Source: Escherichia phage vB_EcoM_UP17
Sequence record: LR746137
Length of the DNA: 64,000 nt
Reading direction: 5' to 3' (one strand)
This document shows positions 47,113 through 63,490 of the stretch, in pieces. The first letter of the stretch is position 1; each line of letters opens with the position of its first letter. The notes beneath the pieces were generated by a model, which worked only from the letters and a program-made list of their open reading frames with translations, ran no database searches and was not told the origin of the DNA. The position numbers and the translations under genes were made by a program.

Positions 47113-47133
47113 AAAACAAAAAAGGGTAACACA

Positions 47134-47496: not shown

Positions 47497-47502
47497 AAAC
47501 GG

Positions 47503-47559: not shown

Positions 47560-47579
47560 AACAATAAAAGGTTAACATC

Positions 47580-47759: not shown

Positions 47760-47778
47760 AAGTTTTAGTCTTATACTA

Positions 47779-47830
47779 TTGACAATGAGTGATAGTATAA
47801 GCATAATAACTTTTATCGGGAATACTTCCC
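47779..47830 (+). promoter_or_regulatory. Promoter-hairpin unit
   Basis: TTGACA-17-CATAAT, hairpin GGGAA-TAC-TTCCC. Confidence 0.5.
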
Positions 47831-47856
47831 ACTAACCAAAAAGAGAGAGTGACACC

Positions 47857-48222: not shown

Positions 48223-48228
48223 AAGTAG

Positions 48229-48287
48229 TTGACAGCACGAATAAAAAGCGTAAAATGTTTTATATCGAGAGCGGGAATAGTTCCCGC
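48229..48287 (+). promoter_or_regulatory. Promoter-hairpin unit
   Basis: TTGACA-16-TAAAAT, hairpin GCGGGAA-TAG-TTCCCGC. Confidence 0.5.
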
Positions 48288-48312
48288 CTCACTGAAAAAA
48301 GAGATTAACATC

Positions 48313-48552
48313 ATGGCTAAATCTAAAATGTATAACGGTCACAAAAACAAAACTCATTGGAATGTAAGCCTTTGGATTAATAACGATGAGTCATTATACC
48401 GCACCGCGAAAGAATTTATTAGTTATAATTCTAACCGTAATGATGCGGCGTGTGATATGATGCTATTCCTGGAACAGATTGGACAAGATAAAACACCGGA
48501 CGGATTCAAGTATAGTAAAACTGCAATCCGCGCCGCGATGGTTGGAATGTAA
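48313..48552 (+). CDS. Early small protein
   Basis: ATG 48313 after AAGAGA. Confidence 0.5.
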   Translation: MAKSKMYNGHKNKTHWNVSLWINNDESLYRTAKEFISYNSNRNDAACDMMLFLEQIGQDKTPDGFKYSKTAIRAAMVGM

Positions 48553-48561
48553 TAAAAACAG

Positions 48562-48616
48562 TTGACAACGTTTAAAATTAGTGTAAGATGTATCACATAG
48601 GGGCGACAAGCGCCCC
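48562..48616 (+). promoter_or_regulatory. Promoter-hairpin unit
   Basis: TTGACA-16-TAAGAT, hairpin GGGGCG-ACAAG-CGCCCC. Confidence 0.5.
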
Positions 48617-48638
48617 TCCTAACGAAGAGAGAAAAATC

Positions 48639-48866
48639 ATGGCTATCAATATTGTTCGCGTATCCGGCACCGTTGGCACTTCCCAGGTTATTGCAGTTGT
48701 AACAAACAAAAAGATTAATGATGTATGTGAGATCTTGAATAAGTGGGCTGTTGCTAATTTTGGGGAATATGCAAGCGTCGAGTACATCGAATCCTACCAG
48801 GTGCCAACCATCAGCCTGACCGATCTCAACGTTGATCGCCTGTTATGCCTGGATGAATTAATCTGA
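48639..48866 (+). CDS. Early small protein
   Basis: ATG 48639 after GAAGAGAGA. Confidence 0.5.
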   Translation: MAINIVRVSGTVGTSQVIAVVTNKKINDVCEILNKWAVANFGEYASVEYIESYQVPTISLTDLNVDRLLCLDELI

Positions 48867-48875
48867 AAAAGATTG

Positions 48876-48933
48876 TTGACACCGGAAAGAAAAAGAGTAA
48901 ACTGTATTACGTAGGGCGGCAATGGTGCCGCTC
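48876..48933 (+). promoter_or_regulatory. Promoter-hairpin unit
   Basis: TTGACA-16-TAAACT, hairpin GGGCGGCA-ATGG-TGCCGCTC. Confidence 0.5.
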
Positions 48934-48956
48934 ACAACAGAAGAGAGATTATCACG

Positions 48957-49169
48957 ATGGCTAATATCCGCACACTGTTAAAAAATGCAAGTCAAGTTTT
49001 ATTTTCAGATGACGAGTATTTCAATAAAGACATTACAGGCGTGAAGAATATCAAAGATGTAAAAAGTGTTATGGGTATATATTGCAATGTTAAACGTGTT
49101 GGAACGTTCGGTGATAAAGTATTGTACCAATCAGGTGATTACAATTTTACTTTGACGATTATTTCATAA
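48957..49169 (+). CDS. Early small protein
   Basis: 70 aa, SD AGAAGAGAG. Confidence 0.5.
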   Translation: MANIRTLLKNASQVLFSDDEYFNKDITGVKNIKDVKSVMGIYCNVKRVGTFGDKVLYQSGDYNFTLTIIS

Positions 49170-49174
49170 AACGC

Positions 49175-49235
49175 TTGCAATACTGCAAAATAAAGTAAAC
49201 TGTATTACATCAAGGCGGCGGAATGGTCCACCGCC
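49175..49235 (+). promoter_or_regulatory. Promoter-hairpin unit (weaker promoter)
   Basis: TTGCAA then TAAACT-like, hairpin 49212-49235 with AATGGT loop. Confidence 0.4.
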
Positions 49236-49259
49236 TAACAAAGAGAAGAGGAAAATATC

Positions 49260-49427
49260 ATGATCACTTTCGCTACCCGTGAAGCCGCTCGCAACGTTGC
49301 ACGTAAAGTTAACGCCGCCAACCTGGGCGCTACTTTTAAAGCCCCGGTGAAAGATGAATCAGGCAAATGGATCTTCCCTGGTCTGCGTCACGCTGATAAG
49401 CTAGGCACTTTAAGCCTTAAAAAATAA
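49260..49427 (+). CDS. Early small basic protein (55 aa), not in ORF track
   Basis: ATG after AGAGAAGAGG; begins MITFA like the next gene. Confidence 0.4.
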   Translation: MITFATREAARNVARKVNAANLGATFKAPVKDESGKWIFPGLRHADKLGTLSLKK

Positions 49428-49430
49428 TCG

Positions 49431-49468
49431 TTGACTTTTCGTTATAGCGCCTTATAATGGGCGCTATA
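49431..49468 (+). promoter_or_regulatory. Promoter with -10 hexamer inside a 9-bp hairpin loop
   Basis: TTGACT-16-TATAAT; TATAGCGCC and GGCGCTATA pair around loop TTATAATG. Confidence 0.45.
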
Positions 49469-49501
49469 GAGAAGAGAAACCACTACTGACAAGGAAACAC
49501 C

Positions 49502-49723
49502 ATGATCACTTTCGCTATTGTCGCCGTTGTTGCTGGTCAAGTTTACGTAAACGATACATTCACCACAGAAGACAAGGCCGCAGGAGACATAACCGCCGTT
49601 TACAATGAGTGCAAGGCAGTAGAAAGGATGTTAGCGCCTTGTATGTTAATGAGTGAACGCCAGGACGGGATAACAGTGTTTACTAACATTGAGACAGGGT
49701 ACCAAATGGTAGTAACAAAATAA
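49502..49723 (+). CDS. Early small protein
   Basis: 73 aa, N-terminus MITFA shared with 49260 ORF. Confidence 0.5.
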   Translation: MITFAIVAVVAGQVYVNDTFTTEDKAAGDITAVYNECKAVERMLAPCMLMSERQDGITVFTNIETGYQMVVTK

Positions 49724-49726
49724 AGC

Positions 49727-49784
49727 TTGACACGGATTTAATTTTCAGTAAACTGTTACACGTAGGGCGGGAATAGTTCCCGCT
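49727..49784 (+). promoter_or_regulatory. Promoter-hairpin unit
   Basis: TTGACA-16-TAAACT, hairpin GCGGGAA-TAG-TTCCCGC. Confidence 0.5.
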
Positions 49785-49801
49785 AAAAAGAGAGAAAGAC
49801 C

Positions 49802-50155
49802 ATGAAAGCACAAAATGCAATTAAAGAGTACATCCTTGCCGCTATCGATTTTAATGATTACGGTATTACAACCGAAAAAGAGAAGATCGCGGAATTGATG
49901 CGCCGTTTTAATTCCGAGTACTGGTACCCTGATAACCAATCACGTTTTAATTATAGTATTGTTAAAGCACTTGCATCATGGTTACAAGGTTTGCCATCAG
50001 ATATTAATATCGCTTTCGAATATTGGGAAATTGATCGCTTGTTAACATCCTGGGGATACATTAAAGAGAATAGCAGCGATGATAAAATCCAACGAGAAAG
50101 GGAAAATTATTGGCTTTATATTGCAGGCGTGATCCTTGCTTGCTCTTATGAATGA
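49802..50155 (+). CDS. Early small protein
   Basis: 117 aa, SD AGAGAGAAAG. Confidence 0.5.
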   Translation: MKAQNAIKEYILAAIDFNDYGITTEKEKIAELMRRFNSEYWYPDNQSRFNYSIVKALASWLQGLPSDINIAFEYWEIDRLLTSWGYIKENSSDDKIQRERENYWLYIAGVILACSYE

Positions 50156-50161
50156 TAAACC

Positions 50162-50215
50162 TTGACAATTTTACAAAACAGTTTAAATTAATAATATAGC
50201 GGCAATGGTGCCGCT
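50162..50215 (+). promoter_or_regulatory. Promoter-hairpin unit
   Basis: TTGACA-16-TAAATT, hairpin AGCGGCA-ATGG-TGCCGCT. Confidence 0.5.
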
Positions 50216-50234
50216 CATATAAAGAGGAAACAAA

Positions 50235-50381
50235 ATGAATACATCTAATCGCGCAGAAAAAATTCAATCTTCCAAGATCCGTAAGGCCTGGAATGAGGAA
50301 GTGATCCGCAAAGGCGACAAGCGCAATAAAACAAAGCGCGGGAAGAGTGACAAATATAATTGGATGGATTTAGAGGATTAA
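50235..50381 (+). CDS. Small basic protein (48 aa), not in ORF track
   Basis: ATG after AAGAGG; Lys/Arg-rich. Confidence 0.35.
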   Translation: MNTSNRAEKIQSSKIRKAWNEEVIRKGDKRNKTKRGKSDKYNWMDLED

Positions 50382-50389
50382 CATAACAA

Positions 50390-50415
50390 GGGCGCACCAA
50401 GCGCCCTTTCTTTTT
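50390..50415 (+). terminator. Rho-independent terminator
   Basis: GGGCGC-ACCAA-GCGCCC then TTTCTTTTT. Confidence 0.6.
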
Positions 50416-50436
50416 ACATGTAGAGGATAAACAAAA

Positions 50437-50622
50437 ATGATTTTAAACGAGCTTAAAACAGCCTACAGCGCAACATTAAAAATAGCCGTGCGTTACCGTG
50501 ACGAATACGGTTTTATCGCGCAGGGCGTGATCCTGGGCTTTTCTGACGATGGTTTGATCTATGTTGATGCACATCACAACAAGGTTAAACCTGAAAACGT
50601 CATTAGCATAAAATATCTTTAA
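50437..50622 (+). CDS. Early small protein
   Basis: 61 aa, SD GAGGATAA. Confidence 0.45.
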   Translation: MILNELKTAYSATLKIAVRYRDEYGFIAQGVILGFSDDGLIYVDAHHNKVKPENVISIKYL

Positions 50623-50628
50623 AAGTGG

Positions 50629-50688
50629 TTGACACCATAACCGGACCTGTTAAACTGTATTACATCAGGCGGGGAATAGTTCCCCACC
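50629..50688 (+). promoter_or_regulatory. Promoter-hairpin unit
   Basis: TTGACA-16-TAAACT, hairpin GGGGAA-TAG-TTCCCC. Confidence 0.5.
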
Positions 50689-50707
50689 ATACAAAAAGGT
50701 AAATATT

Positions 50708-50914
50708 ATGATCACCGCAAAACAAGAAAAAATCATTATCGACGTTGCAGCCGTTGCCGCTATTGCTATTATTGGATCTTATTATGATACCCGTTTCCCG
50801 TCGGCTATGCATGAGGTCGCCGCCGTTGCATCAGTTGGCGTGCTGTTTTACGTTGGTAAACGCTATTTATCACCAATGATTAACAAGCTGACACCGTGGA
50901 AAAATAAAGGTTGA
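50708..50914 (+). CDS. Early small membrane protein
   Basis: 68 aa, hydrophobic core. Confidence 0.5.
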   Translation: MITAKQEKIIIDVAAVAAIAIIGSYYDTRFPSAMHEVAAVASVGVLFYVGKRYLSPMINKLTPWKNKG

Positions 50915-50965
50915 TCCTGTTTTACATTGTGTTATAGTTATCGTGTAGGGCGGCAATGGTGCCGC
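50911..50965 (+). promoter_or_regulatory. Promoter-hairpin unit
   Basis: TTGATC-16-TATAGT, hairpin GGCGGCA-ATGG-TGCCGC. Confidence 0.45.
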
Positions 50966-50985
50966 GCCCCTTTGAGGATGCAATC

Positions 50986-51270
50986 ATGAGTAAAGCTAAC
51001 ACCGTGCTAATGTTTTCCCTGGTTAATGATCCCGCTTACTTGTCCAACATGACGCAGGAGGGTGACACATTAACGGCAACATTCACCAATAAGCTTGACC
51101 GAGTGATCATCATCTCACTGAAAACAGTTAGTAAAGGCTTTTACTCGTTAGCTTATCATTGGATCACCGATACCGATGAGACAAGCCAGGACTATAGCGC
51201 CCCTTTCCCTGAATCAATGGCACGGGAGATCATCGCCGCCGTTGTAAATGATGGTTTGTTTACTGCATAA
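50986..51270 (+). CDS. Early small protein
   Basis: ATG 50986 after GAGGATG. Confidence 0.5.
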   Translation: MSKANTVLMFSLVNDPAYLSNMTQEGDTLTATFTNKLDRVIIISLKTVSKGFYSLAYHWITDTDETSQDYSAPFPESMAREIIAAVVNDGLFTA

Positions 51271-51288
51271 AATAATTCAGAAAAAGGC

Positions 51289-51345
51289 TTGCAATCATTT
51301 TGGGATAATGTATATTTAATGCATAGGGCGGCGGGAATAGTTCCC
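51289..51345 (+). promoter_or_regulatory. Promoter-hairpin unit
   Basis: TTGCAA-17-TATATT, hairpin GGGAA-TAG-TTCCC. Confidence 0.45.
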
Positions 51346-51368
51346 AAAGCAAACGAGAGGATTACACG

Positions 51369-51488
51369 ATGAGCAAGTACACAGTAGAATACACGGTAGA
51401 AAATCCGGCAGTATCCGAAGGTAAAAAGATGACATTTGCCATCAGTATAATCGCTTTCGTTGTCACTATCTTATCAATCATCTTATAA
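51369..51488 (+). CDS. Hydrophobic micro-peptide (39 aa), not in ORF track
   Basis: ATG after GAGAGG; C-terminal TM segment. Confidence 0.3.
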   Translation: MSKYTVEYTVENPAVSEGKKMTFAISIIAFVVTILSIIL

Positions 51489-51498
51489 GGTGCACACC

Positions 51499-51678
51499 AT
51501 GAAAACATCAGACGTTATCAAATCATCCAAGATTATTAAAGAGATCGCCCTTGCCACTGGCATTGAGATCGAGGAAGTGATCGCGCTCAATCTTACAGAA
51601 GACAACTTGCGCAGCTATGAAACGGAAAGCGTGAAAGCAAGTGGCGCGATCCTGGCATATAATCCGGCTAACAAATAA
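51499..51678 (+). CDS. Early small protein
   Basis: ATG 51499, 10 nt after previous stop. Confidence 0.45.
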   Translation: MKTSDVIKSSKIIKEIALATGIEIEEVIALNLTEDNLRSYETESVKASGAILAYNPANK

Positions 51679-51679
51679 C

Positions 51680-51734
51680 TTGACAAGCTGAATCAACCTG
51701 ATAAGATGTATCACATAGGGGCGACAAGCGCCCC
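51680..51734 (+). promoter_or_regulatory. Promoter-hairpin unit
   Basis: TTGACA-16-TAAGAT, hairpin GGGGCG-ACAAG-CGCCCC. Confidence 0.5.
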
Positions 51735-51755
51735 GCCTAACAGAGAGATAGAATC

Positions 51756-52034
51756 ATGACCATCACCAAATTATCCACCGAAGAAATCGAACAAGTGCTG
51801 ACTACTAATCTGCAAGATTGGAAGCGTGAAGCAGATTTGCAAGCGGTTTGCAAGCTGAATGCAGAATTAACGGAAAATGATATTGACACTATTGTTAGCC
51901 CCGATTTTTATGATGCTATTCATGATGATTCGATTATCCTTGAAACACTGTTAGATAACACTTGGATCAATCCTGATTTGGCAGCTTATGACCGTAGCGC
52001 CTTTATCACTATCCACAATATTTACAACCGTTAA
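51756..52034 (+). CDS. Early small acidic protein
   Basis: 92 aa, SD AGAGAGATAG. Confidence 0.5.
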   Translation: MTITKLSTEEIEQVLTTNLQDWKREADLQAVCKLNAELTENDIDTIVSPDFYDAIHDDSIILETLLDNTWINPDLAAYDRSAFITIHNIYNR

Positions 52035-52043
52035 GGGGATAAC

Positions 52044-52154
52044 ATGAATCCGAAAGACATGCAAGCCTGGAAAGGGTATGATGATCTAAGCGCCTTGCGC
52101 AATAAGTCAAGCCGTAACCTTAGACGATTGGAAGCAAAGAAAAAGAAAAAATAG
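52044..52154 (+). CDS. Small basic ORF (36 aa), not in ORF track
   Basis: ATG after AAGGGGA; Lys-rich tail. Confidence 0.3.
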   Translation: MNPKDMQAWKGYDDLSALRNKSSRNLRRLEAKKKKK

Positions 52155-52155
52155 T

Positions 52156-52213
52156 TTGACAAGTCCGCGTAGTCTGGTAATATGTATCTTGTAGGGCGGC
52201 AATGGTGCCGCTC
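52156..52213 (+). promoter_or_regulatory. Promoter-hairpin unit
   Basis: TTGACA-16-TAATAT, hairpin GGGCGGCA-ATGG-TGCCGCTC. Confidence 0.5.
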
Positions 52214-52232
52214 ACAAGAAGAGAGAAAAATC

Positions 52233-52517
52233 ATGAAAATCACAAAAAGCCTGACTAATTATGCAGCACGTCGCGGATTATGTTTAACCGTTGAAAACTT
52301 AGGGAAAGAAGACTTTTTGTGTTTTTGGGAGCTTGAGAATGATTGCGAGTGGATGTTTTCTTATTCTATCTGCGAAGATCAAAACGGTTGTTTGTTAACC
52401 TGGCGCGGTAATATCTATTTACCGGAAGAAATTAAAGAAGAGCTACCAGGTACGATCATGACAGAGAGACAGCTTAAGGAAGTGATCAATTTTGTAGGGC
52501 AAAACATTAAAAAATAA
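52233..52517 (+). CDS. Early small protein
   Basis: ATG 52233 after AAGAAGAGAGA. Confidence 0.5.
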   Translation: MKITKSLTNYAARRGLCLTVENLGKEDFLCFWELENDCEWMFSYSICEDQNGCLLTWRGNIYLPEEIKEELPGTIMTERQLKEVINFVGQNIKK

Positions 52518-52518
52518 T

Positions 52519-52581
52519 TTGACAGCAGGCAAACAACGTAGTAAAGTTTATTACATAGAGCGGCGGAATGGTCCACCGCTC
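52519..52581 (+). promoter_or_regulatory. Promoter-hairpin unit
   Basis: TTGACA-17-TAAAGT, hairpin 52558-52581 with AATGGT loop. Confidence 0.5.
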
Positions 52582-52602
52582 ACAACAGAAGAGAAACAAA
52601 TC

Positions 52603-52773
52603 ATGATCCCGACTATGTTTTATGTATCGCGCAAAGGTCACAATATTTTTTGGTCTGAAGATTTAAATGAAGCTATGACGTTTGCCCGTGATCGTGTTGC
52701 TATCGGTGGCGTTAACATCACCGTAACCGATGAAAATGGTATTGAATACTATAACGGCGACGATGAAGAATAA
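52603..52773 (+). CDS. Early small protein
   Basis: ATG 52603 after AGAAGAGAAA. Confidence 0.5.
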   Translation: MIPTMFYVSRKGHNIFWSEDLNEAMTFARDRVAIGGVNITVTDENGIEYYNGDDEE

Positions 52774-52810
52774 TTGACAACCTGAAAGCTGTATTTTTAA
52801 AATACAGCTT
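52774..52810 (+). promoter_or_regulatory. TTGACA followed by perfect 8-bp hairpin
   Basis: AAGCTGTA-TTTTTAAAA-TACAGCTT directly after a -35-like hexamer. Confidence 0.35.
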
Positions 52811-52831
52811 AGAAAATGTAGTAAATAAACC

Positions 52832-52893
52832 TTGACAATGGTTTGTTATCTGGTAAAGTGTACTACGTAGGGCGGGGCAATGGTGCAACGCCC
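52832..52893 (+). promoter_or_regulatory. Promoter-hairpin unit (variant hairpin)
   Basis: TTGACA-16-TAAAGT, hairpin GGGCGGGGCAATGGTGCAACGCCC. Confidence 0.45.
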
Positions 52894-52911
52894 ATTAATG
52901 AGGGTAGAATC

Positions 52912-53016
52912 ATGTTAGAGAAAATTTTCACGGTTGCAGTGGTTGGCCTGGCGTTATCGGTTGGAGTAGTTGCAACTATGGCTAACATGATCCTATCTTC
53001 CCACGGTATCGGTTAA
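52912..53016 (+). CDS. Hydrophobic micro-peptide (34 aa), not in ORF track
   Basis: ATG after GAGGG; single TM-like segment. Confidence 0.3.
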   Translation: MLEKIFTVAVVGLALSVGVVATMANMILSSHGIG

Positions 53017-53026
53017 GGTGAAACAA

Positions 53027-53242
53027 ATGATCACGAACAAAACAGGCAAAACGGAATTTTTACGCGGCTTACAAGTTGGTAAGCCTGAGATCTGGCATTG
53101 CACGAAGTCCGCGCATAATGAAATGAAAGATTTCACCGCTACTTTACAACGTGTTAAAATATCTATTACGCAGAAAAAAGCCTTATTAGTAGTAGAAAAC
53201 GAGATCCCGCAAACTATTATTATTGTCGAGCGTACAGCATGA
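53027..53242 (+). CDS. Early small protein
   Basis: ATG 53027 after AAGGTG. Confidence 0.45.
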   Translation: MITNKTGKTEFLRGLQVGKPEIWHCTKSAHNEMKDFTATLQRVKISITQKKALLVVENEIPQTIIIVERTA

Positions 53243-53625
53243 AAACAGAAATCATTATTGAAATCATCAACGGCTATAAAGAAGCCTTTATTTTTGCTGA
53301 ATCAGCAAGGGATCATGAAGGTAATTTTATTGATAACTTAGACGATTATGATTTTTCTCCTAGTGCGGATCAACGGATCGCCCAGGATGTAACAGTCTTT
53401 ATTAATGCTAATCTTGCCGCTATCTCTGAGGCAATGAGCGACGGCGCAACAGCCAACCAGATCGGGAATGATTTACATTTTACCCGTAACAGTCACGGCG
53501 TAGGCTTTTGGGATCGCCCTGAAATATACACCACTAACACGGCGAACCGCCTAACCAATGCAGCTAAGTTTATGCCGAACGTGTCGGCTTACATTGGTGA
53601 AGATAATTTGATTTATATTGAATAA
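53239..53625 (+). CDS. Early protein
   Basis: 128 aa, ATGA overlap with upstream gene. Confidence 0.5.
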   Translation: MKTEIIIEIINGYKEAFIFAESARDHEGNFIDNLDDYDFSPSADQRIAQDVTVFINANLAAISEAMSDGATANQIGNDLHFTRNSHGVGFWDRPEIYTTNTANRLTNAAKFMPNVSAYIGEDNLIYIE

Positions 53626-53631
53626 AAAGTA

Positions 53632-53689
53632 TTGACACAGATCGCCAGTGTGCTAATATTTACCACGTAGGGCGGCAATGGTGCCGCTC
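53632..53689 (+). promoter_or_regulatory. Promoter-hairpin unit
   Basis: TTGACA-16-TAATAT, hairpin GGGCGGCA-ATGG-TGCCGCTC. Confidence 0.5.
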
Positions 53690-53708
53690 CCCGAAAAAGG
53701 TAAACATT

Positions 53709-53900
53709 ATGAAAACCATCTCCTACCTGGAATCGAATAACATGTTTTTTGCGCCCGTTGATGAAATCATCGAAGCATTAAACAACGAGGAAGGGATCAA
53801 AGGTTTATCTTATAGCCAACTTTTAGGAATGGTTGCAGCAAATGAAGAGCTTGCTTACTATGTTGAAAATTTTGATGAAGCTGTAATCTTTACAAAATAA
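53709..53900 (+). CDS. Early small acidic protein
   Basis: 63 aa, SD AAAAAGG. Confidence 0.5.
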   Translation: MKTISYLESNNMFFAPVDEIIEALNNEEGIKGLSYSQLLGMVAANEELAYYVENFDEAVIFTK

Positions 53901-53903
53901 TCC

Positions 53904-53960
53904 TTGATCTAATCTCTTAGATAACTTATATTTAATGTGTAGGGCGGCAATGGTGCCGCC
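53904..53960 (+). promoter_or_regulatory. Promoter-hairpin unit
   Basis: TTGATC-17-TATATT, hairpin GGGCGGCA-ATGG-TGCCGCC. Confidence 0.5.
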
Positions 53961-53978
53961 GATAACGAGGAAAGTAAA

Positions 53979-54278
53979 ATGGAAACTATCGCTATTGTTA
54001 CCGTAGAAAAGCTGGTTGTTGGTGATGTATTCGCGTTAATGGTGCCTAACAGCAGCAAGCTGGGCGCTTATGAAGTAATGGATCATAAAAATGAATCATT
54101 TGGCGACGGTTGCACAATGGCGGTAAAATCTTTAAAGGATGGAATCATCCGCCAGGCTAACTGGCACAAAGGGAATCAAGTCGGTTTAATATCAGCTAAT
54201 TTCTTGCCAGAAGAGCAAACGTTAGACCAACTATCAGGCGGTAAGACGTTAGCCGAACTACTGGAAACAGCGATCTAA
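53979..54278 (+). CDS. Early small protein
   Basis: 99 aa, SD GAGGAAAG. Confidence 0.5.
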   Translation: METIAIVTVEKLVVGDVFALMVPNSSKLGAYEVMDHKNESFGDGCTMAVKSLKDGIIRQANWHKGNQVGLISANFLPEEQTLDQLSGGKTLAELLETAI

Positions 54279-54286
54279 TCAACAAA

Positions 54287-54302
54287 GGGGCGGCAACGCC
54301 CC
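54287..54302 (+). promoter_or_regulatory. Leader hairpin with GCAA tetraloop, no obvious promoter
   Basis: GGGGCG-GCAA-CGCCCC, 20 nt before ATG 54323. Confidence 0.4.
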
Positions 54303-54322
54303 ACATCAGAAAGGAAAAGATT

Positions 54323-54559
54323 ATGAGTATTGCAACAGTATTAACCGCCGTTAAAACCGCTGAATCATCCGGCTTGCATGTTGAGCTTATAGATCAACCA
54401 GGTGGCGATCTCCTTGTCCAGGTTTACCCGCCGAAAGTAGGGGATGATCATTATTGGTGTTATTCTGATACGTTCGAACAAGTAGACACGAAAGCGATCA
54501 CAACCTTTATTTTAAAAGCCGTTGAAGAAAATAACTTTCATTATAACATCAATCAATAA
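54323..54559 (+). CDS. Early small protein
   Basis: 78 aa, SD AAAGGAAAAG. Confidence 0.5.
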   Translation: MSIATVLTAVKTAESSGLHVELIDQPGGDLLVQVYPPKVGDDHYWCYSDTFEQVDTKAITTFILKAVEENNFHYNINQ

Positions 54560-54569
54560 ACCATAAGCA

Positions 54570-54584
54570 GGGCGGTAACGCCCC
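54570..54584 (+). promoter_or_regulatory. Leader hairpin with GTAA tetraloop
   Basis: GGGCG-GTAA-CGCCC upstream of ATG 54614. Confidence 0.4.
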
Positions 54585-54613
54585 ATTAAACGCAATAGGA
54601 AGAGGATAGACGT

Positions 54614-54898
54614 ATGAAAAAGATGATCGCAGTAGTTGCCCTGGTTGTTGGTATTAACGCGCCTACACTGGCTAATGAGTTGCCAGAATCCATCACGCTA
54701 ACCGACATCAACGCAGTGAATCGGATCGGTGTTAATTATCGCCTATGCCTTGCCGCTAAAACTTTCCAGGACGGCACGACAGAGTACTACGGATTCGAGG
54801 GTATCCGCTGCGGTGAGCTTGCACGCGACCTTAAGGAAGATCCAGACCTTGAGGCCATACCGATGACCGTAAACGGTAAAGCCCACGTAAACCGCTAA
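54614..54898 (+). CDS. Secreted small protein
   Basis: Signal peptide MKKMIAVVALVVGINAPTLA. Confidence 0.5.
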   Translation: MKKMIAVVALVVGINAPTLANELPESITLTDINAVNRIGVNYRLCLAAKTFQDGTTEYYGFEGIRCGELARDLKEDPDLEAIPMTVNGKAHVNR

Positions 54899-54900
54899 CC

Positions 54901-55035
54901 ATGAGAAAGGTAATCATCACAATGGGGATCGTAGTAGCAACGCTGGCGCTTATCCCTTTCATGGTTGAACATGTGCTGATCAGTGTTGTCCTTATAGTCA
55001 GTGACCTATTGGAAACGGTTGGCACCTGGTTTTAA
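54901..55035 (+). CDS. Hydrophobic micro-peptide (44 aa, or 37 aa from internal ATG 54922), not in ORF track
   Basis: Two hydrophobic segments; weak SD; terminator follows. Confidence 0.3.
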   Translation: MRKVIITMGIVVATLALIPFMVEHVLISVVLIVSDLLETVGTWF

Positions 55036-55043
55036 GATAATAA

Positions 55044-55070
55044 ATAGGGCTTGCAATAGTCCTATTTTTT
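55044..55070 (+). terminator. Rho-independent terminator
   Basis: ATAGGGC...GTCCTAT stem then TTTTTT. Confidence 0.5.
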
Positions 55071-55209
55071 GTTATACTTGTTGAACGGGCGGCACCTGGG
55101 AGCAGGGGAAGATAATCACCGGAAGACTCCGCTATATATTGATAACTAACGCCTATCAAACAACAAAACATCAAAGGAACAAACTATCAAATCTTTACAA
55201 TTCCACCTA

Positions 55210-55270
55210 TTGACACCGGATCACGCTTACACTATTATTTATCACGTAGGGCGAGCAATACAGCAAGCCC
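55210..55270 (+). promoter_or_regulatory. Promoter with degenerate hairpin
   Basis: TTGACA-17-TATTAT; GGGC...GCCC short stem at 55249-55270. Confidence 0.45.
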
Positions 55271-56215: not shown

Positions 56216-56230
56216 TTGACAACAAAACAA

Positions 56231-56257
56231 GGGGCGCACCAAGCGCCCTTTCTTTTT
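56231..56257 (+). terminator. Rho-independent terminator closing the early array
   Basis: GGGGCGC-ACCAA-GCGCCC then TTTCTTTTT. Confidence 0.6.
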
Positions 56258-57028
56258 GCCCGAACAATGTTGATAGCTTTCGCCTATGAAAAACCGACAC
56301 AGAACAAAATTGAATAAATCGCGGTATCGAGCTAATCAACCATTAAACGAATAACCATACCTCCCAGGGTAACAGGCTGTTAGAGAGCCATTTAAAGCGG
56401 TTAAAATCGATCAACAACCAACAACAAACCATCAAAAACACCCTTTTACCTCCTTTCTAGTGCAATGATAACCATTATCATCTATCCATGTTTATCTATG
56501 CAATATAAGTGCATAACTATAATGTTGATAATAGTTCGCAACAACTAACTAACCAACAACCTAAAACAATAAGCAAACTAATCATAATCAAAGGAATAAT
56601 AGCAAGATGATTGATAACGACAAACAATCAAACCATGATGAATACTAAGCAAGATAACGATAACACGACAAAACAACCAACTAACGAACAATAACAAACG
56701 AAACCATTAAAATAACAACTATTAGCAAAATAGTGCCTGAATGAAATCATTACAAAACGAATCATTCACAGAGTCATCATTAGCACGCTATGCCGGACAC
56801 ATAGCGAGCTAATAATAAGCCAACTACACCCCAACAATCATAACCATCGGTGATGGTTATTTCTTGTTACTGCGTAGCTTGCAATAATTGCAAGCGTAAT
56901 TACGCTTACACTTATTGCGCTGGCTTATTATTAGCATTATATGTAATTACTGAGATCATAACATTAGCGCAATAACAATAATCATTGTGGTAATTACGTA
57001 AGGAAACAATTAGCATGGCAATAATTAT

Positions 57029-57176
57029 GGGGGCAATGGGAGGATGATTATCATCATTCCGATACATTGCACACTATGCACATAATGAGATAAAAAGCAA
57101 TACTTTTGGGGGCGAAATGTTACCGCCACAGGCGGGAATGTTGAGCACTAAGAAAAGAGCAAATATTACGGGGGCG
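57029..57176. repeat. Three iteron-like GGGGGC(G/A)A direct repeats
   Basis: GGGGGCA at 57029, GGGGGCG at 57108 and 57170, each in TNNGGGGGCNAAT context. Confidence 0.45.
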
Positions 57177-57275
57177 AATACTATCGCTACGCGATATGTT
57201 AAGCACCTTCTCTTAAACGTAAATAAAATCAGAAAATTCTTGATTTATTTTGGCTTTTATGTTAATAAACGTTTA

Positions 57276-57296
57276 AATAATAATCATTCTCATATA
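57276..57296. promoter_or_regulatory. Fur-box-like motif 3
   Basis: AATAATAATCATTCTCATATA; ATAATCATTCTCAT identical to motif 2. Confidence 0.35.
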
Positions 57297-57453
57297 AATA
57301 ATAGTCTGCTTGTCATGAGCGGGATCAGTTGACAGTGTTCCGTCATATGATGAAGTTGCCAACCCCTTGATAAATAAGTGTTTGTGTGATTTATAATCAA
57401 GTGGCCCACCTTGTCGCTACGTTGGCATGAAGCTTGCATAAGTCATTGAATAC

Positions 57454-57478
57454 GAATGATAATTATTCTCATTCGCAT
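57454..57478. promoter_or_regulatory. Fur-box-like motif 4
   Basis: GAATGATAATTATTCTCATTCGCAT. Confidence 0.35.
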
Positions 57479-57589
57479 GATATTTGGGAATTGTCGCTGC
57501 GTGGACCTGACGGCCCGAAAATTCGCGTTAAGCACTTCTTACGTATACGCCATGATTATTGCCATATCATATTGATTCTATTAGATATT

Positions 57590-57787
57590 CTTGCCATGAT
57601 TGCCATGAAACAGGGTGTGTCGAAATAATCTCTCCCCGTAGATATTTTGGGTTACTTTTTATACAAGAGTAGGGTGTCAAAAATAATCGGTATATATGGG
57701 ATAATTGATAGGAATCCCCTATGATAATTCGATTGTAATTCCCTAAGATTGATCGTATGATGTTGGTGATTGATGATTGCCATGAAA
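57590..57787. repeat. TTGCCATGA-type short repeats
   Basis: CTTGCCATG/ATTGCCATGAAA tandem at 57590-57610, GATTGCCATGAAA again at 57775-57787. Confidence 0.4.
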
Positions 57788-57814
57788 GATGGCTAACGAT
57801 GAGAGGGGATTATC

Positions 57815-58159
57815 ATGCAAGAGAGTAAAAATGTTCCGTTGAGTAGTTTACGTCTAATGAAGTTTTACAAAGCTTGGCTTGCTGGTGAGGTAGAAGGTCA
57901 CACAACGAGTGGTTTGTGCATATGTTTGATTAAGTATGTAGAGGGAACATATCCTGATGAACTGTTACCTCGTCTACAACAGGAGATGAGATCACAATTT
58001 ATTAGTGCAGGGTTGGATTACAATTTCCCGTTTAATGAGGGTGGCTATGAGGAATACACGTTTGAACATAGAGCATGTATTTGCCATAAAAACAAACATC
58101 GTATACAATGGGTGCTAGATAGAATTCAAGATTACGAAGGAGAGAAAAATGACAAATAA
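57815..58159 (+). CDS. Small protein, paralog family A (copy 1)
   Basis: Shared FYKAW...TTSGLCxCL...AGLDYNxPFN...RxQWVxDRI. Confidence 0.5.
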   Translation: MQESKNVPLSSLRLMKFYKAWLAGEVEGHTTSGLCICLIKYVEGTYPDELLPRLQQEMRSQFISAGLDYNFPFNEGGYEEYTFEHRACICHKNKHRIQWVLDRIQDYEGEKNDK

Positions 58160-58517
58160 TATTCCGTTGAGCAGTGCAGAATTGCTTCGCTTCTATAAAG
58201 CATGGATTGCCAACTATCCTGCAATGAATCGCACAACGAGTGGCTTATGTGGTTGTCTGGTAGATTATGTAGATGATTTTGTTGGTGAGACAACTAGAGA
58301 AGAAGATAGAAGATGGCGGGATAGTTTGTTGGACCGCTTGAAATATGAAATGAGGAAACAATTTACATGTGCAGGGCTGGACTACAATCTTCCGTTCAAT
58401 GCAGATTGCATGGATTACCTTTCAGAGTGTATAAACTTGGCGTGTCATACCAACACGTTACGTCTTCAATGGGTAAAAGACAGAATTGAAGATGCAAATA
58501 ATGCTTGCATTGAATAA
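58149..58517 (+). CDS. Small protein, paralog family A (copy 2)
   Basis: Same conserved blocks as 57815 ORF. Confidence 0.5.
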   Translation: MTNNIPLSSAELLRFYKAWIANYPAMNRTTSGLCGCLVDYVDDFVGETTREEDRRWRDSLLDRLKYEMRKQFTCAGLDYNLPFNADCMDYLSECINLACHTNTLRLQWVKDRIEDANNACIE

Positions 58518-58566
58518 AGATGTTTGTATAATGGATGACATAACAGATAGCCAATGAGGAGATGAA

Positions 58567-58788
58567 ATGAAAAAGTTGAAAACTGTCGCAATGTTCCTGA
58601 CTGATCCTACACGTGTGCAAGCACTGGCTAAAGCCAGTCGTGTAGCTGTAGAATTCCAAAACTTTAAGCCGTCCGTTGTGACAGGCAGTGAAACGTGTGT
58701 TATCGATTTCATTAACGAATACTTCCGAGGGAATCCGGTTGGTCGTTACTTCATTAAAAACTTGAAGGATGCGGAGCAGGTACAATGA
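58567..58788 (+). CDS. Hypothetical small protein
   Basis: 73 aa, SD GAGGAG. Confidence 0.5.
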   Translation: MKKLKTVAMFLTDPTRVQALAKASRVAVEFQNFKPSVVTGSETCVIDFINEYFRGNPVGRYFIKNLKDAEQVQ

Positions 58789-59024
58789 TCCTTCCAGTAG
58801 ATAATGAGATAGCTATGAATGTTCTGGATACAGAATACTTCTACAATCACTACTCTGAGACAGAGTGGATGAACACGCAAACTCTAAAAGAGAAGACGCA
58901 AGCTTTGATTAAGTGTGATCGCTACTTGCAACGTGCCGAGGAAGATAATATAACATTAGCATCTCGCGCACGACGCGTTTCTATTTTCAATAAAATGTTA
59001 GCATTATGGGGAGGTAGAAAATGA
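58785..59024 (+). CDS. Hypothetical small protein
   Basis: 79 aa, ATGA overlap. Confidence 0.5.
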   Translation: MILPVDNEIAMNVLDTEYFYNHYSETEWMNTQTLKEKTQALIKCDRYLQRAEEDNITLASRARRVSIFNKMLALWGGRK

Positions 59025-59482
59025 GACAACCATCTATACTGGAAGCGCATGTGCAATGTGTTGTAGATTATGTCAAAGAACACTCAAGTTTGTTGAATGT
59101 AACCTGTGCAGTGCAAAACGATGTAGGTATTGTCTGTGTGCAACATATCTTATCTGAAACTCGTTATGAAGTATTTCGTGCCACGTTGTTTGGATGTGAT
59201 CGAGTGCATGTAAACTTCCTGGACTCCAATTATCGTTATGCTTTAGAAAATATTGATGATTATCTTCCTTGCTCTCCGACCGGATATGTGATGATAGCAG
59301 CAAATGAAATAACACCAAGCAACAGTGAGCGGGAAGCTTTGTTACGGAAGAAAATACGCCAACTGCAAGTGTTGAATGAACTGAAAGAAGAGATCGAAAA
59401 AGAACTAAAAGAAGATTTTGGTATGCTTCCAAAAGATGCTTTGAAATGGTATGATGAGTTAGGAGGAGAAAGTTATGAATAA
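59021..59482 (+). CDS. Hypothetical protein
   Basis: 153 aa, ATGA overlap. Confidence 0.5.
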   Translation: MRQPSILEAHVQCVVDYVKEHSSLLNVTCAVQNDVGIVCVQHILSETRYEVFRATLFGCDRVHVNFLDSNYRYALENIDDYLPCSPTGYVMIAANEITPSNSEREALLRKKIRQLQVLNELKEEIEKELKEDFGMLPKDALKWYDELGGESYE

Positions 59483-59669
59483 AGGAACTACTGTATATTT
59501 AGTGACTAAGAACACCCCAGGTTGGAGTCAGTGCACAACAACTCCATATAAAATCTGTGCAACACTGGAATTAGCACAACGTGCAGAAGCAGAAGTTGAT
59601 GCTATGCGATACAGTTACGGTGAAATCATTCCTTTTACTCTTGAACAAGAAGGAGCACATCATGTTTAA
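59475..59669 (+). CDS. Hypothetical small protein
   Basis: 64 aa, SD GGAGGAG. Confidence 0.45.
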   Translation: MNKGTTVYLVTKNTPGWSQCTTTPYKICATLELAQRAEAEVDAMRYSYGEIIPFTLEQEGAHHV

Positions 59670-60117
59670 AGTAGGGTTTACTTATAAATTCAAAAGCGTT
59701 GCTGACCAAGGAGATATGGCAACACATGACAAAGCAAATATTGCTGTTTGCCAAGTGATTGGAAACGAAGTTTTCAAAGTTATGAATACAGATGATAAGT
59801 ATGGTCATGTTCTTGAGTTTTATATCAATGGTACCCTCTATACAGCAGGTGTTACCCCAGGGTTTAATTCGTATACTTATTTGATTGATAACGAAGAATT
59901 TAAATATTTTGAAGAAGTAAAGGAGGAAACAATGGGTAAAGCAGAACCACAATGGCATGTTGTGATCGTAGGATCAGAGTGTGTAGATGTTTGTTCTAGT
60001 TTTGAAAAAGCTTCTGAAGTCGCTACAAAAGCTAAGAAGGATTATCCGTCGAAGACGGTTGAGATTTACACTCGTGTTGCAGTAGCAAACGCCACAATCA
60101 CTATTGATAAGGAGTAA
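59662..60117 (+). CDS. Protein, paralog family B (copy 1)
   Basis: ATG 59662 after AAGGAG; MFKVGxxYKF start and VEIYTRVAVAN tail shared with 60123 ORF. Confidence 0.5.
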   Translation: MFKVGFTYKFKSVADQGDMATHDKANIAVCQVIGNEVFKVMNTDDKYGHVLEFYINGTLYTAGVTPGFNSYTYLIDNEEFKYFEEVKEETMGKAEPQWHVVIVGSECVDVCSSFEKASEVATKAKKDYPSKTVEIYTRVAVANATITIDKE

Positions 60118-60122
60118 AGCCA

Positions 60123-60581
60123 ATGTTCAAAGAAGGTCATGTCTACCGTTTCCAGGATGAAGATTATATGCGACTATATTCTACCTTTGATAGCAGTATT
60201 GCTGCTATCATTGGAGAGAATTTTTTCGAGGTGTTGAGCACTGATGCAAATGGTAATATCTTGTCAATGGTTGTAATAGGTATGAGAGACGGTATTATCA
60301 CTGCTGGTGATGGGGATCGTTACATAATCAATTCTGCTCATATAGATTATTTTGTTGACGGTGGTGTTCGTGGTGGTCGTGGAAAACCCCAAGAAGAACC
60401 TGTTGATACAACAAAAGAAGAGTGGTATGTTGTAATGACTGATGACACCTGTATTTCTGGATTTGAAAGTTATGAAGAAGCTTTGAAAGAAGCAGCAGAG
60501 CATAAAATGGCTAATCCTACAGAAGAGGTTGAAGTTTATAAACGTTTGGTTGTTGCTACCATCGGCGTATCTTTTGTTTAA
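60123..60581 (+). CDS. Protein, paralog family B (copy 2)
   Basis: MFKEGHVYRF ... VEVYKRLVVAT. Confidence 0.5.
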   Translation: MFKEGHVYRFQDEDYMRLYSTFDSSIAAIIGENFFEVLSTDANGNILSMVVIGMRDGIITAGDGDRYIINSAHIDYFVDGGVRGGRGKPQEEPVDTTKEEWYVVMTDDTCISGFESYEEALKEAAEHKMANPTEEVEVYKRLVVATIGVSFV

Positions 60582-60593
60582 AAGGGGAATGTT

Positions 60594-61031
60594 ATGTTTA
60601 AAGTTAATGCTGTTTACTGTTTCAAAAGCAAAGCTGCATGTGAAGCTTTCTCTATGATCTCTGATGAAAATTTCAAAATGGCAGCTTTGATTGAAGGGTC
60701 TTGTTTCCGCGTCGAAGATGTTAGTGAATCAGGCTCTGTTTGCTCATTGACTTTATTGGACAGCGGAGATATTATTAAAGCTGGACAGTATCCGTTCAGG
60801 AGTTGGGAGATATTGTTAGCTCGCGGAGAGCGTAACTTTTTTATGTGCGTGTCTGCGGGGGAAGTTGTGAAAGAAACTAAGGATGTTTCTGTTTACAATT
60901 CTGAATTTATAAGTTATAGTGAGTATCAACATCTGGAAGGCATTGTTGGTCACTTGTTATCTCTGATTGACGTTGAATGTGACCTGCCTGAATCATTGAA
61001 AGAAGAGTTGAAAGCATTAGATCTGTTATAA
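60594..61031 (+). CDS. Protein, family B-related N-terminus (copy 3)
   Basis: MFKVNAVYCF start. Confidence 0.45.
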   Translation: MFKVNAVYCFKSKAACEAFSMISDENFKMAALIEGSCFRVEDVSESGSVCSLTLLDSGDIIKAGQYPFRSWEILLARGERNFFMCVSAGEVVKETKDVSVYNSEFISYSEYQHLEGIVGHLLSLIDVECDLPESLKEELKALDLL

Positions 61032-61058
61032 TGTTTCGCACAACGAAAGGAGAATAAG

Positions 61059-61358
61059 ATGAATCTGACCGAACAGTTACGCCGTATTGCAAAAGAAGCT
61101 TCCTTCAACTTCCCTGTTGAAGAAGTGATCGAGACATGTTTTGCTGAAGCACGAGCGGGAAACTCTTCAAGAAATTTCACGCCATCTGATTTTGGTCTGG
61201 ATAATTCACCTACCCACCCAGGGGAGATCTACAATCAGGTGAAGTGGATGGATGAAGCAGTAGCAATTCTTCGTGAGCGTGGGCTTATTGTTTATAAAGA
61301 AATGGATCTGAACGGGGCATACGAGTGGATCACTATTGATTGGTCCGAGGTGAAATGA
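61059..61358 (+). CDS. Hypothetical protein
   Basis: 99 aa, SD AAGGAG. Confidence 0.5.
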   Translation: MNLTEQLRRIAKEASFNFPVEEVIETCFAEARAGNSSRNFTPSDFGLDNSPTHPGEIYNQVKWMDEAVAILRERGLIVYKEMDLNGAYEWITIDWSEVK

Positions 61359-61591
61359 TGAAAGGTAATAAGATGAAAGTTAATCAGGCACCGAGCGCAT
61401 ACACTTTGTGGCTTGCGCGAGCGTTACACCAGACGATCAAAAACCCTAAGAAGCCAATGAAGAGCGGGAAGAAGTTTATGTCTAAGGGCAAAACAACCTT
61501 TGGCTTCACTCGTATGTCTGTTAAGATGAAAAGACTGGGGTATAAGCCAAACTACGCTCGTTACCCTTCTGAATACAACTGGTTCGACTAA
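61355..61591 (+). CDS. Hypothetical basic small protein
   Basis: ATG 61355 after GAGGTG, ATGA overlap; alternative starts 61358 or 61373. Confidence 0.4.
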   Translation: MMKGNKMKVNQAPSAYTLWLARALHQTIKNPKKPMKSGKKFMSKGKTTFGFTRMSVKMKRLGYKPNYARYPSEYNWFD

Positions 61592-61606
61592 AAAGGAGAA
61601 CAAAAC

Positions 61607-61825
61607 ATGAAAACATCTATTCGCGTAAAACATGATCCAAACAGCAGTTACCCATACGCATATGTTGAACGTCATGAAGGGGACTATTACACCATAAAAC
61701 GTAAAGTCCCAACTGATACAGGGTTTAACTTTGATGTTATTGCACTGGATGATCAAGGTGTTGATAATCTGGTGAATGCATTACTCGCATTGAAGGAAGT
61801 ACGATATGAAAATCCGACTAATTGA
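61607..61825 (+). CDS. Hypothetical small protein
   Basis: 72 aa, SD AAGGAG. Confidence 0.5.
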   Translation: MKTSIRVKHDPNSSYPYAYVERHEGDYYTIKRKVPTDTGFNFDVIALDDQGVDNLVNALLALKEVRYENPTN

Positions 61826-61997
61826 AAAGGGTGATACCATCTTCGAAACCCGTAAAGGTGAAATCACAGAGATTCCAGAAGAAAGATCAACAATCCTTGT
61901 TGATGGTGTTTTGAAATATTGCTGTAGTGTCTATAAATCTTACGAGAAGGATCAGTATGGCGATCCAGAAATCTGGTTTGTAGGAGATGTGTATTAA
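61806..61997 (+). CDS. Hypothetical small protein
   Basis: 63 aa ORF. Confidence 0.45.
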   Translation: MKIRLIEKGDTIFETRKGEITEIPEERSTILVDGVLKYCCSVYKSYEKDQYGDPEIWFVGDVY

Positions 61998-62006
61998 GGG
62001 GGTAAA

Positions 62007-62366
62007 ATGAGCGGAGAATTTCGTAAAGTAAAAGATATCTCCTTGTTTGAAGGAGATGTTGTTAGGATCAACGGAAGATTGTTAAAATTTCACCAATTGA
62101 TGTATCCAAGCACAACACGCAATGTGATGGTGATCTTCCAGGACGCTTTTGCTGCCAGCGATTACACTCCGTATTCAGCAGAAACTGAAGTATATTTTGA
62201 AGGATATGTTGATCGACCACTTGCAAAAGAGATGTGGGACAAGTATCATATAAACATTACAGATTCACGGGGTGTCTTCTGGAACTACCCTAGCGAAGGT
62301 AAAGTGGCTTTCGATTCTTGTGATCGTTTAGCCGAAGAGATTGCCGAATGGCGTGATGCTAACTAA
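62007..62366 (+). CDS. Hypothetical protein
   Basis: 119 aa, SD AGGGGG. Confidence 0.5.
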   Translation: MSGEFRKVKDISLFEGDVVRINGRLLKFHQLMYPSTTRNVMVIFQDAFAASDYTPYSAETEVYFEGYVDRPLAKEMWDKYHINITDSRGVFWNYPSEGKVAFDSCDRLAEEIAEWRDAN

Positions 62367-62381
62367 AACAGGAGAAAGATT

Positions 62382-62558
62382 ATGGCTACTTTTCAACAAC
62401 TAAAAGACGTTTCACGTCTAGTAAGAAAAATCCGAGAGGCAGACGCTGCTGTGCGGAATGCACTAACGCCAGCAGAGCGTGAAGATCTTGAAGATGAGGT
62501 GAAAACAGCCGAGAATGCTTTTGCTGCGTATCTTTCAACACTGTATACAGGAGGTTAA
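62382..62558 (+). CDS. Small protein (58 aa), not in ORF track
   Basis: ATG after CAGGAG, stop overlaps next ATG (TAAATG). Confidence 0.45.
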   Translation: MATFQQLKDVSRLVRKIREADAAVRNALTPAEREDLEDEVKTAENAFAAYLSTLYTGG

Positions 62559-62873
62559 ATGTCAGAGGAACTTAAAGAATTTTATCAGGCATATCATAAC
62601 TGGCTATTAGCTGGTGCTCCAGATAATAATCCTTTCTGGCATGATAAAGGTTTGTGCAGTTGCCTCTATCTTTGGTCTGGTGGCTATGATGATCTAAATT
62701 ATGAAATGCAAATGCAATTTCGAGAAGCAGGGTTGTCTGAAGAATACCCGTTTGATGACGGAGACTGGTTTAAATATGATTTTGCACAAAGAAACGGGCT
62801 ATTGCATTTGAATGCCGCCCGTATAAAATGGGTAAAAGACCATGCTACACAGGAGGATGTGCAATGCCAATAG
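62559..62873 (+). CDS. Small protein, paralog family A (copy 3)
   Basis: FYQAY...KGLCSCL...AGLSEEYPFD...RIKWVKD. Confidence 0.5.
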   Translation: MSEELKEFYQAYHNWLLAGAPDNNPFWHDKGLCSCLYLWSGGYDDLNYEMQMQFREAGLSEEYPFDDGDWFKYDFAQRNGLLHLNAARIKWVKDHATQEDVQCQ

Positions 62874-63268: not shown

Positions 63269-63490
63269 ATGAAAATTAGAGTTTGTGATGTATTGGGTTA
63301 TGTTGGTTTTGAGAATGTTCAGATTCCTTTTGTTGTTGAAGCGCATCTTGTTAGCGATGATATGACAACATTCTTTGTTACGATAGAAGAAATGTCCAAA
63401 GTTGAGGGATGGGAGTGGTTTGAAGAAGATGTTTGGGAAGGTTGTGATTACGTATTTTTCTCTGACGAAGTGAATGTTCTTTCGGAGTAG
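63269..63490 (+). CDS. Hypothetical small acidic protein
   Basis: 73 aa, SD AAGGAG. Confidence 0.5.
   Translation: MKIRVCDVLGYVGFENVQIPFVVEAHLVSDDMTTFFVTIEEMSKVEGWEWFEEDVWEGCDYVFFSDEVNVLSE

Follow-up and report, generated by a model that had tools for sequence, protein, structure and literature searches.

A 64,000-nucleotide stretch of the genome of Escherichia phage vB_EcoM_UP17 (sequence record LR746137; hereafter the window) encodes three paralogous families of small acidic proteins which, judged from their sequences, are old and have each been kept intact by selection. Families A (A1, A2, and A3) and B (B1, B2, and B3) are encoded in a tightly packed, one-strand block, and family C (C1 and C2) is found beside Ter-type genes. 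The isoelectric points of all copies lie between 4.3 and 5.8. The original prediction had attributed the small genes to recent duplication; they are instead an ordinary trait of large virulent phages and not the outcome of a recent duplication burst. Family B adds a member to a described protein family, and families A and C are catalogued and uncharacterised. The reading as a whole, in which the three families are old and selected and the A and B proteins would serve as binding modules, is considered reasonably probable.

Paralogy of the small genes

All eight predicted open reading frames (ORFs) were present at their predicted coordinates. Their relationships were assessed by comparing Smith–Waterman scores with those of 1000 shuffles per pair. 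In family A, the tandem genes A1 (57815..58159, plus strand, 114 amino acids) and A2 (58149..58517, plus strand, 122 amino acids) gave z = 49.6 with 47% identity over 115 amino acids, and A3 (62559..62873, plus strand, 104 amino acids) reached z = 23.3 with A1 and z = 16.0 with A2. B1 (59662..60117, plus strand, 151 amino acids) and B2 (60123..60581, plus strand, 152 amino acids) are related over their full length (z = 23.4), with both halves significant (z = 11.7 and 12.3). The similarity of B3 (60594..61031, plus strand, 145 amino acids) to B1 (z = 7.1) and B2 (z = 6.5) is confined to the N-terminal ~90 amino acids (z = 9.2 and 8.0, respectively); the C-terminal halves scored about 0. C1 (17119..17388, minus strand, 89 amino acids) and C2 (18410..18688, minus strand, 92 amino acids) gave z = 19.3, and the cross-family control A1/B1 gave z = 0.5. 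For every within-family pair, none of the 1000 shuffles equalled the observed score, and the same pairs were recovered by all-against-all BLASTP of the window's 404 ORFs. Hidden Markov model (HMM) searches of all 404 ORFs detected no A or B copy beyond the three of each. The comparison with shuffled controls, which had been set beforehand as the check, thus upheld the existence of true paralogous families, including the three related A copies as well as the two full B copies and the related N-terminus at 60594.

It is extremely improbable that the ORFs are spurious and resemble one another through chance or composition. The sole point for this explanation is their shortness and lack of annotation, whereas z values of 6.5 to 50 were never reached by the shuffles, the HMM matches to PHROG families are as low as E 1e-99, the orthologues are under purifying selection, and a confident AlphaFold2 (AF2) model was obtained for family A. 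A chance or artefactual origin was ruled out by the shuffles, the PHROG matches, and the selection on orthologues.

Age of the duplications and selection

The proportion of synonymous differences between paralogues (pS 0.62–0.78) is saturated, which indicates that the duplications are old. Because of this saturation, the ratio of nonsynonymous to synonymous divergence (dN/dS) between paralogues was uninformative and was dropped. The orthologues of each copy in other members of the genus share 94–100% amino acid identity. In comparison with four relatives, the orthologue dN/dS was mostly between 0.0 and 0.3, with 0.08–0.28 for A1, 0.08–0.19 for A2, 0–0.04 for A3, 0.06–0.25 for B3, and 0.05–0.13 for B2, for which one value of 0.53 was obtained at very low divergence. 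These ratios point to purifying selection on the orthologues.

In a tree of 216 family A domains, A1 and A2 fall within one clade of 19, and A3 connects to them only at the family root, a node that covers 199 domains. The nearest non-orthologue of A3 is a Drexlerviridae protein (47.5% identity), which is closer than A1, A2, or any other paralogue of the same genome. Phage anhysbys, which is colinear with the window at an offset of ~1.7 kb, carries a second local pair (anhysbys_133 and anhysbys_136, 52% identity). The tree and the nearest neighbours therefore suggest that the many copies of family A have a mixed origin: A1/A2 and anhysbys_133/136 would have originated by old local tandem duplication, and A3 and others by ancient divergence or horizontal acquisition. 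A recent duplication, as originally proposed, is not supported by the saturated paralogues, the conserved orthologues, or the placement of A3. The count of three A copies holds within the window, but the family is larger, since in anhysbys it counts seven genes, located from 55.4 to 68.7 kb. Because the two phages are colinear, four more A copies are to be expected directly beyond the window's right end.

The variable A1/A2 locus

Among near-identical phages, the position of A1 and A2 is occupied by one, two, or three copies. In the relative L010, a single 124-amino-acid gene (P0001) replaces both and joins the N-terminus of A1 to the body of A2; this chimera has 198 member sequences. The relative L015 carries three tandem A copies. 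In L012, the A1 and A2 positions hold genes only 48–51% identical to those of the window, between flanks of high identity (upstream non-coding region 94.6%, g10–g20 95–100%, A3 99%). A 21-nt repeat is found at the 5' end of both A1 and A2 and likely marks the crossover site of the chimera. Orthologues with at least 80% identity were found in 37 phage records for A1, about a third of the related records, and in 76 for A2. A3 is at least 95% identical in 61 records and appears from these comparisons to be fixed in the genus. The A1/A2 position is thus a variable accessory locus with one to three copies and ~50%-identical alleles between flanks of 94–100% identity. Recombination between copies and allele replacement would have reshaped this array at the head of the block.

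Further observations were made at this locus. A2 relatives that are 40–50% identical in the body share the same last 12 residues, DRIEDANNACIE. In view of this conserved end, the 3' end of A2 may represent a fixed junction of recombination, or a conserved signal for the following gene may overlap it. In L010, L012, and L015, the A array is directly followed by a 37%-identical relative of g19 (63269–63490). Two 155-kb records, PV682947 (WPEC4) and PV763039 (WPEC6), gave 12 A1/A2 tblastn places each versus 2 to 5 in other relatives, which may reflect a real expansion or an assembly artefact.

The variability of the locus bears on the original prediction of recent duplicates, read here as genes which diverged rapidly in an arms race and act as anti-defence or host-takeover effectors. 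Such an origin would account for the varying copy number of A1/A2, the ~50%-identical alleles between near-identical flanks, and the presence of A1 orthologues in only about a third of the related records; small acidic proteins in an accessory-looking arm would also fit. It is nevertheless unlikely, given the saturated synonymous sites between paralogues, the purifying selection inside each allele lineage, and the near-invariance of A3, B2, and B3 across the genus. None of the eight proteins matched a family at E ≤ 0.1 in PADLOC, which contains defence-system models only, and no support for this explanation was found in the literature.

Family A is a widespread phage-specific domain

Family A corresponds to PHROG 2510 (pVOG 7392, the label of the anhysbys orthologues). 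A1, the first gene of the block, its tandem sister A2, and the deep-branching A3, which is conserved across the genus, all have significant HMM matches to PHROG 2510 over most of the protein (E 1e-24, 2.8e-25, and 8.9e-29, respectively). The database entries are without function, fold, or name, and they do not record the extent of the family, its multi-copy arrays, its tandem fusions, or the variable head locus. Literature searches on the PHROG and pVOG entries, Phapecoctavirus early genes, and Stephanstirmvirinae paralogues found nothing relevant.

The family proved to be very widespread. An exhaustive HMMER search of 1.84 billion representatives retrieved 1323 sequences at E ≤ 1e-3 and 474 at E ≤ 1e-10, so that family A comprises ~1,300 clusters when counted at 50% identity; a word-indexed search retrieved only 27 relatives. 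Every named cluster comes from a phage. Using tblastn, members were detected in Phapecoctavirus, Justusliebigvirus (phi92 gp006), N4-like phages, Drexlerviridae, and other phages, and in a single plasmid record. A scan of viral contigs yielded a single locus, and a scan of genome contigs with the motif HLNP[KA]RI[QK]W yielded no relative. Fusions of two and three A domains occur, for example, in Citrobacter phage Tr1 and Burkholderia phage BcepSaruman, and one large cluster, from phage Av-05, fuses the A domain to DUF551, a domain also reported in early accessory proteins of lambdoid phages.

Structure prediction, which had been suggested as a check, gave a confident five-helix AF2 model for A1 with a predicted local distance difference test (pLDDT) score of 90 and a predicted template modelling score of 0.83. 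Its structural neighbours in BFVD were uncharacterised phage proteins only, from phages of Escherichia, Achromobacter, Rhizobium, Burkholderia, Pectobacterium, Klebsiella, and Delftia. Sequence searches of the PDB with three family A profiles gave only noise, and 64 diverse members had no match in Pfam and NCBIfam besides a stray ZorA2 hit (E 0.009). Family A is accordingly described, on the basis of the model, as a predicted phage-specific, acidic five-helix domain of ~100 amino acids.

The residues L14, F17, Y18, W21, G33-L34-C35, E57, Q61-F62, P72-F73, Y81, E84, H91, N93, R96, and W99-V100 are near-invariant in the family. This conservation raises the question of whether the family A domain acts as a small enzyme or binds a ligand or metal, for instance, with a thiol-dependent activity or as a small-molecule sponge. 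The site would be formed by Cys35, which sits at a helix N-terminus, and by Glu57, Gln61, His91, Asn93, and Arg96. An invariant Gly-Leu directly precedes the cysteine where helix 2 begins, and across the 216 domains C35 is retained in 200, Q61 in 199, N93 in 199, R96 in 216, and H91 in 162. However, two of the seven anhysbys paralogues have lost E57 and Q61, H91 or N93 is lost in one each, and lysine replaces the cysteine in one 211-member cluster. Since an all-helical protein of 100 amino acids would also be small for a catalytic fold, an enzyme or ligand-binding domain is regarded as quite unlikely.

Family B is the counterpart of the T4 GoF family

Family B represents the T4 GoF family in Phapecoctavirus, with an N-terminal LSm/SH3-like barrel, a flexible acidic linker, and an exchangeable C-terminal domain. 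GoF and Frd.2, together with MotB.1, are abundant, dispensable early proteins of T4 with an LSm-like fold (Kim et al., 2025, PMC12152347). Alignment of the B profile with T4 GoF using hhalign gave a probability of 84% (E 7.6e-6) and covered the whole N-domain (residues 2–85 versus 5–89); the match to MotB.1 was not significant (7% probability). Family B matched PHROGs 3710, 622, and 5347 (B1 belonging to 3710, and B3 matching 22975 in addition to 622 and 3710), and weakly the goF PHROGs 13003 (E 6e-4) and 2980 (E 5e-3). One public record labels family B orthologues "goF mRNA metabolism modulator", and B3 is annotated in LR597654 as "RNA metabolism moderator of RB51". In Pfam, B1 remained below the gathering thresholds of PF03197 FRD2 (15.3 versus 29) and PF11191 DUF2782 (22.6 versus 26.8), and B2 and B3 matched neither of the two.

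The AF2 model of family B (pLDDT 73) contains an N-domain with a five-strand bent antiparallel sheet, a disordered linker (residues 84–97, pLDDT <50), and a beta-beta-alpha-beta C-domain. The GoF-like B1 and B2 share this architecture, including the C-domain, whereas B3 combines the B-type N-domain with an unrelated C-terminal half. Like the GoF/Frd.2/MotB.1 proteins of T4, family B thus has an N-terminal five-strand barrel of ~85 amino acids, which a flexible acidic linker connects to a variable C-terminal domain; a genome carries several paralogues, and the structural neighbours, FeoA and IdeR among them, overlap. In contrast to the T4 proteins, which were described from Tevenvirinae, family B belongs to a phage of the Stephanstirmvirinae, B1 and B2 end in a small beta-beta-alpha-beta domain, and a form with a doubled N-domain exists in relatives of the phage. 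This form was observed in many phapecoctaviruses as a 261-amino-acid gene between B2 and B3 which encodes two B N-domains and one B C-domain (4520–5305 in L001, 4850–5635 in L004, and 5220–6005 in L010); it is not found in the window. The B array is likewise variable, and B1 is an accessory gene, absent from ev052, ESCO13, L010, and L012.

The kinship with GoF suggests a further explanation, in which the B proteins are RNA-binding, LSm-type chaperones that alter mRNA stability in the manner of GoF(D25Y). The homology of the B N-domain to GoF and the five-strand bent sheet of the model are in accordance with such a role, and GoF(D25Y) stabilises the gene 41 reporter RNA; wild-type GoF and MotB.1, however, do not (PMC12152347). 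The net charge of B1 to B3 (−7 to −15) is also unfavourable for RNA binding, and this activity is given only a small chance.

Family C and the Ter-type cluster

C1 and C2 match PHROG 11278, which has no known function, over their full length (E 7e-45 and 2e-50, respectively). Both genes start with GTG behind a good Shine–Dalgarno sequence of the AGGAGG type. Homologues were found in this phage group only, and family C appears to be a lineage-specific pair. C1 is separated by 15 nt from the TerD gene (16501–17103, minus strand, Pfam) and C2 by 1 nt from a vWA-TerF-like gene (17614–18408, minus strand, Pfam). The pair had been described as following these two genes, which is correct in plus-strand coordinates; in the direction of transcription, the C copies lie 5' of them. 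Because the gaps are so short, co-expression of the C proteins with the vWA-TerF-like and TerD proteins is suggested, and they are perhaps their partners.

The TerD and vWA-TerF-like genes are part of a phage-borne Ter-type cluster (16501–20913, minus strand), which also includes a TelA gene (19801–20913, minus strand). A gene encoding a SleB-type cell-wall hydrolase (15879–16400) adjoins the cluster, and anhysbys, the colinear phage, has a gene annotated as TerC further on.

Genomic context and expression

By sequence, the window is assigned to a phAPEC8-like coliphage of the genus Phapecoctavirus, subfamily Stephanstirmvirinae. The region from 57.0 to 64.0 kb is 95–97% identical at the nucleotide level to many Phapecoctavirus records, phAPEC8-like E. 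coli myoviruses included. The GC skew splits the window into two arms, a minus-strand arm up to ~38 kb with replication, glycosyltransferase, and Ter-type genes and a plus-strand arm after ~38 kb with small genes. No tRNA genes were found. The neighbouring genes between 58.5 and 63.5 kb all belong to PHROGs of unknown function or to none.

The A/B block is preceded by a strong terminator (56229–56251, terminator scan) and a 1.56-kb stretch without a credible ORF (56252..57814), which extends to A1 and is presumed to be the control region of the block. Its first third is A/C-rich, and it is 94–97% identical at the nucleotide level in the relatives L010 and L012. An Rfam search of 55.5–64 kb, this stretch included, gave no match. 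The numbering of several public records begins within it. A 29-nt motif (TAAATRATAATCATTCTCAT...) occurs at 44673–44701, 57274–57302, and 57453–57481, each time in a non-coding gap that precedes a gene block. Of the three, the one at 44673–44701 resembles the E. coli Fur-box consensus with three mismatches; six of 100 shuffles matched as well.

Upstream, the plus-strand block from 45613 to 55251 contains 13 promoter cassettes, each preceding a small gene, where shuffles predict 0.03. A cassette consists of a perfect TTGACA, a 16–17-nt spacer, a −10 box TAnnnT, ~8 nt, the conserved GC hairpin TAGGGCGGCAATGGTGCCGCC, and a ribosome-binding site. The array looks like a set of strong promoters for the host RNA polymerase with a common stem-loop in the 5' untranslated region.

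Early expression of families A and B is plausible in view of their position, an A homologue in the presumed early region of an N4-like contig, and the early expression of T4 GoF (PMC12152347). In the N4-like case, a metagenomic contig, the A-family gene has an N4 gp2 homologue on one side and the gene of the phage RNA polymerase on the other, a site taken to be the early region.

Outside the three families, the ORFs 45331–45606 and 52182–52517 (plus strand) show weak paralogy (32% identity over 77 amino acids, E 1e-4). On the minus strand, a tandem pair (12033–12977 and 12985–13932; 314 and 315 amino acids, 41% identical) was picked up by the all-against-all BLASTP as well; it has weak matches to group-1 glycosyltransferases and could encode DNA-modification or sugar-transfer enzymes. 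The adjoining protein (13922–14605) has a faint match to a TET-associated glycosyltransferase.

Proposed mechanism

The A and B proteins are proposed to be non-enzymatic binding modules that would be made before replication and dock onto host or defence macromolecules, the paralogues having separate targets. A1 and A2 probably act together, because their genes overlap by 11 nt (the 3' end of A1 and the start of A2) and fused two-domain relatives exist.

Several points weigh against the old, selected families with a binding function described here. The dN/dS ratios come from short genes, a simple Nei–Gojobori count, and four relatives only. No annotated homologue gives a function for families A or C, and wild-type GoF is itself without a known function (PMC12152347). 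The near-invariant residues C35, E57, Q61, E84, H91, N93, and R96 of family A would also fit a catalytic or ligand site. None of the 13 consensus sigma-70 cassettes of the neighbouring block is found in the A/B block.

A more far-reaching proposal, which joins several of these elements, is that family A is an undescribed, phage-restricted helical superfamily whose copies form a modular arsenal, each neutralising a different host or immune protein. It would combine a hypervariable copy-number cassette at the head of the operon with fixed copies downstream, a shared target-neutralising surface that includes the conserved Cys and Arg, and A1/A2 tandems whose heterodimers would correspond to the fused two-domain proteins found elsewhere among phages. 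This proposal is viewed as doubtful.

Significance

Large virulent phages such as T4 and T5 contain multigene families of small early or accessory proteins, and they spend tens of kilobases on small genes of unknown function. The window resembles them in its tightly packed one-strand small ORFs, in genes that are probably dispensable, too, and in the mosaic gene content among close relatives; it differs in that families A and C are without sequence or fold kinship to characterised members. The analysis sorts the small-gene families of the window into three units, a GoF-type family, a widespread helical domain, and a Ter-linked pair. Family B extends the T4 GoF family to another phage subfamily, and family A, a very widespread helical domain without a structural relative, merits a Pfam entry. 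Current understanding is not overturned, and the finding is of modest interest; two points are worth following, the variability of the A1/A2 locus and how widespread family A is. Because alleles and copy number differ between otherwise identical phages, A1/A2 is a concrete and cheap target for host-range and counter-defence screens.

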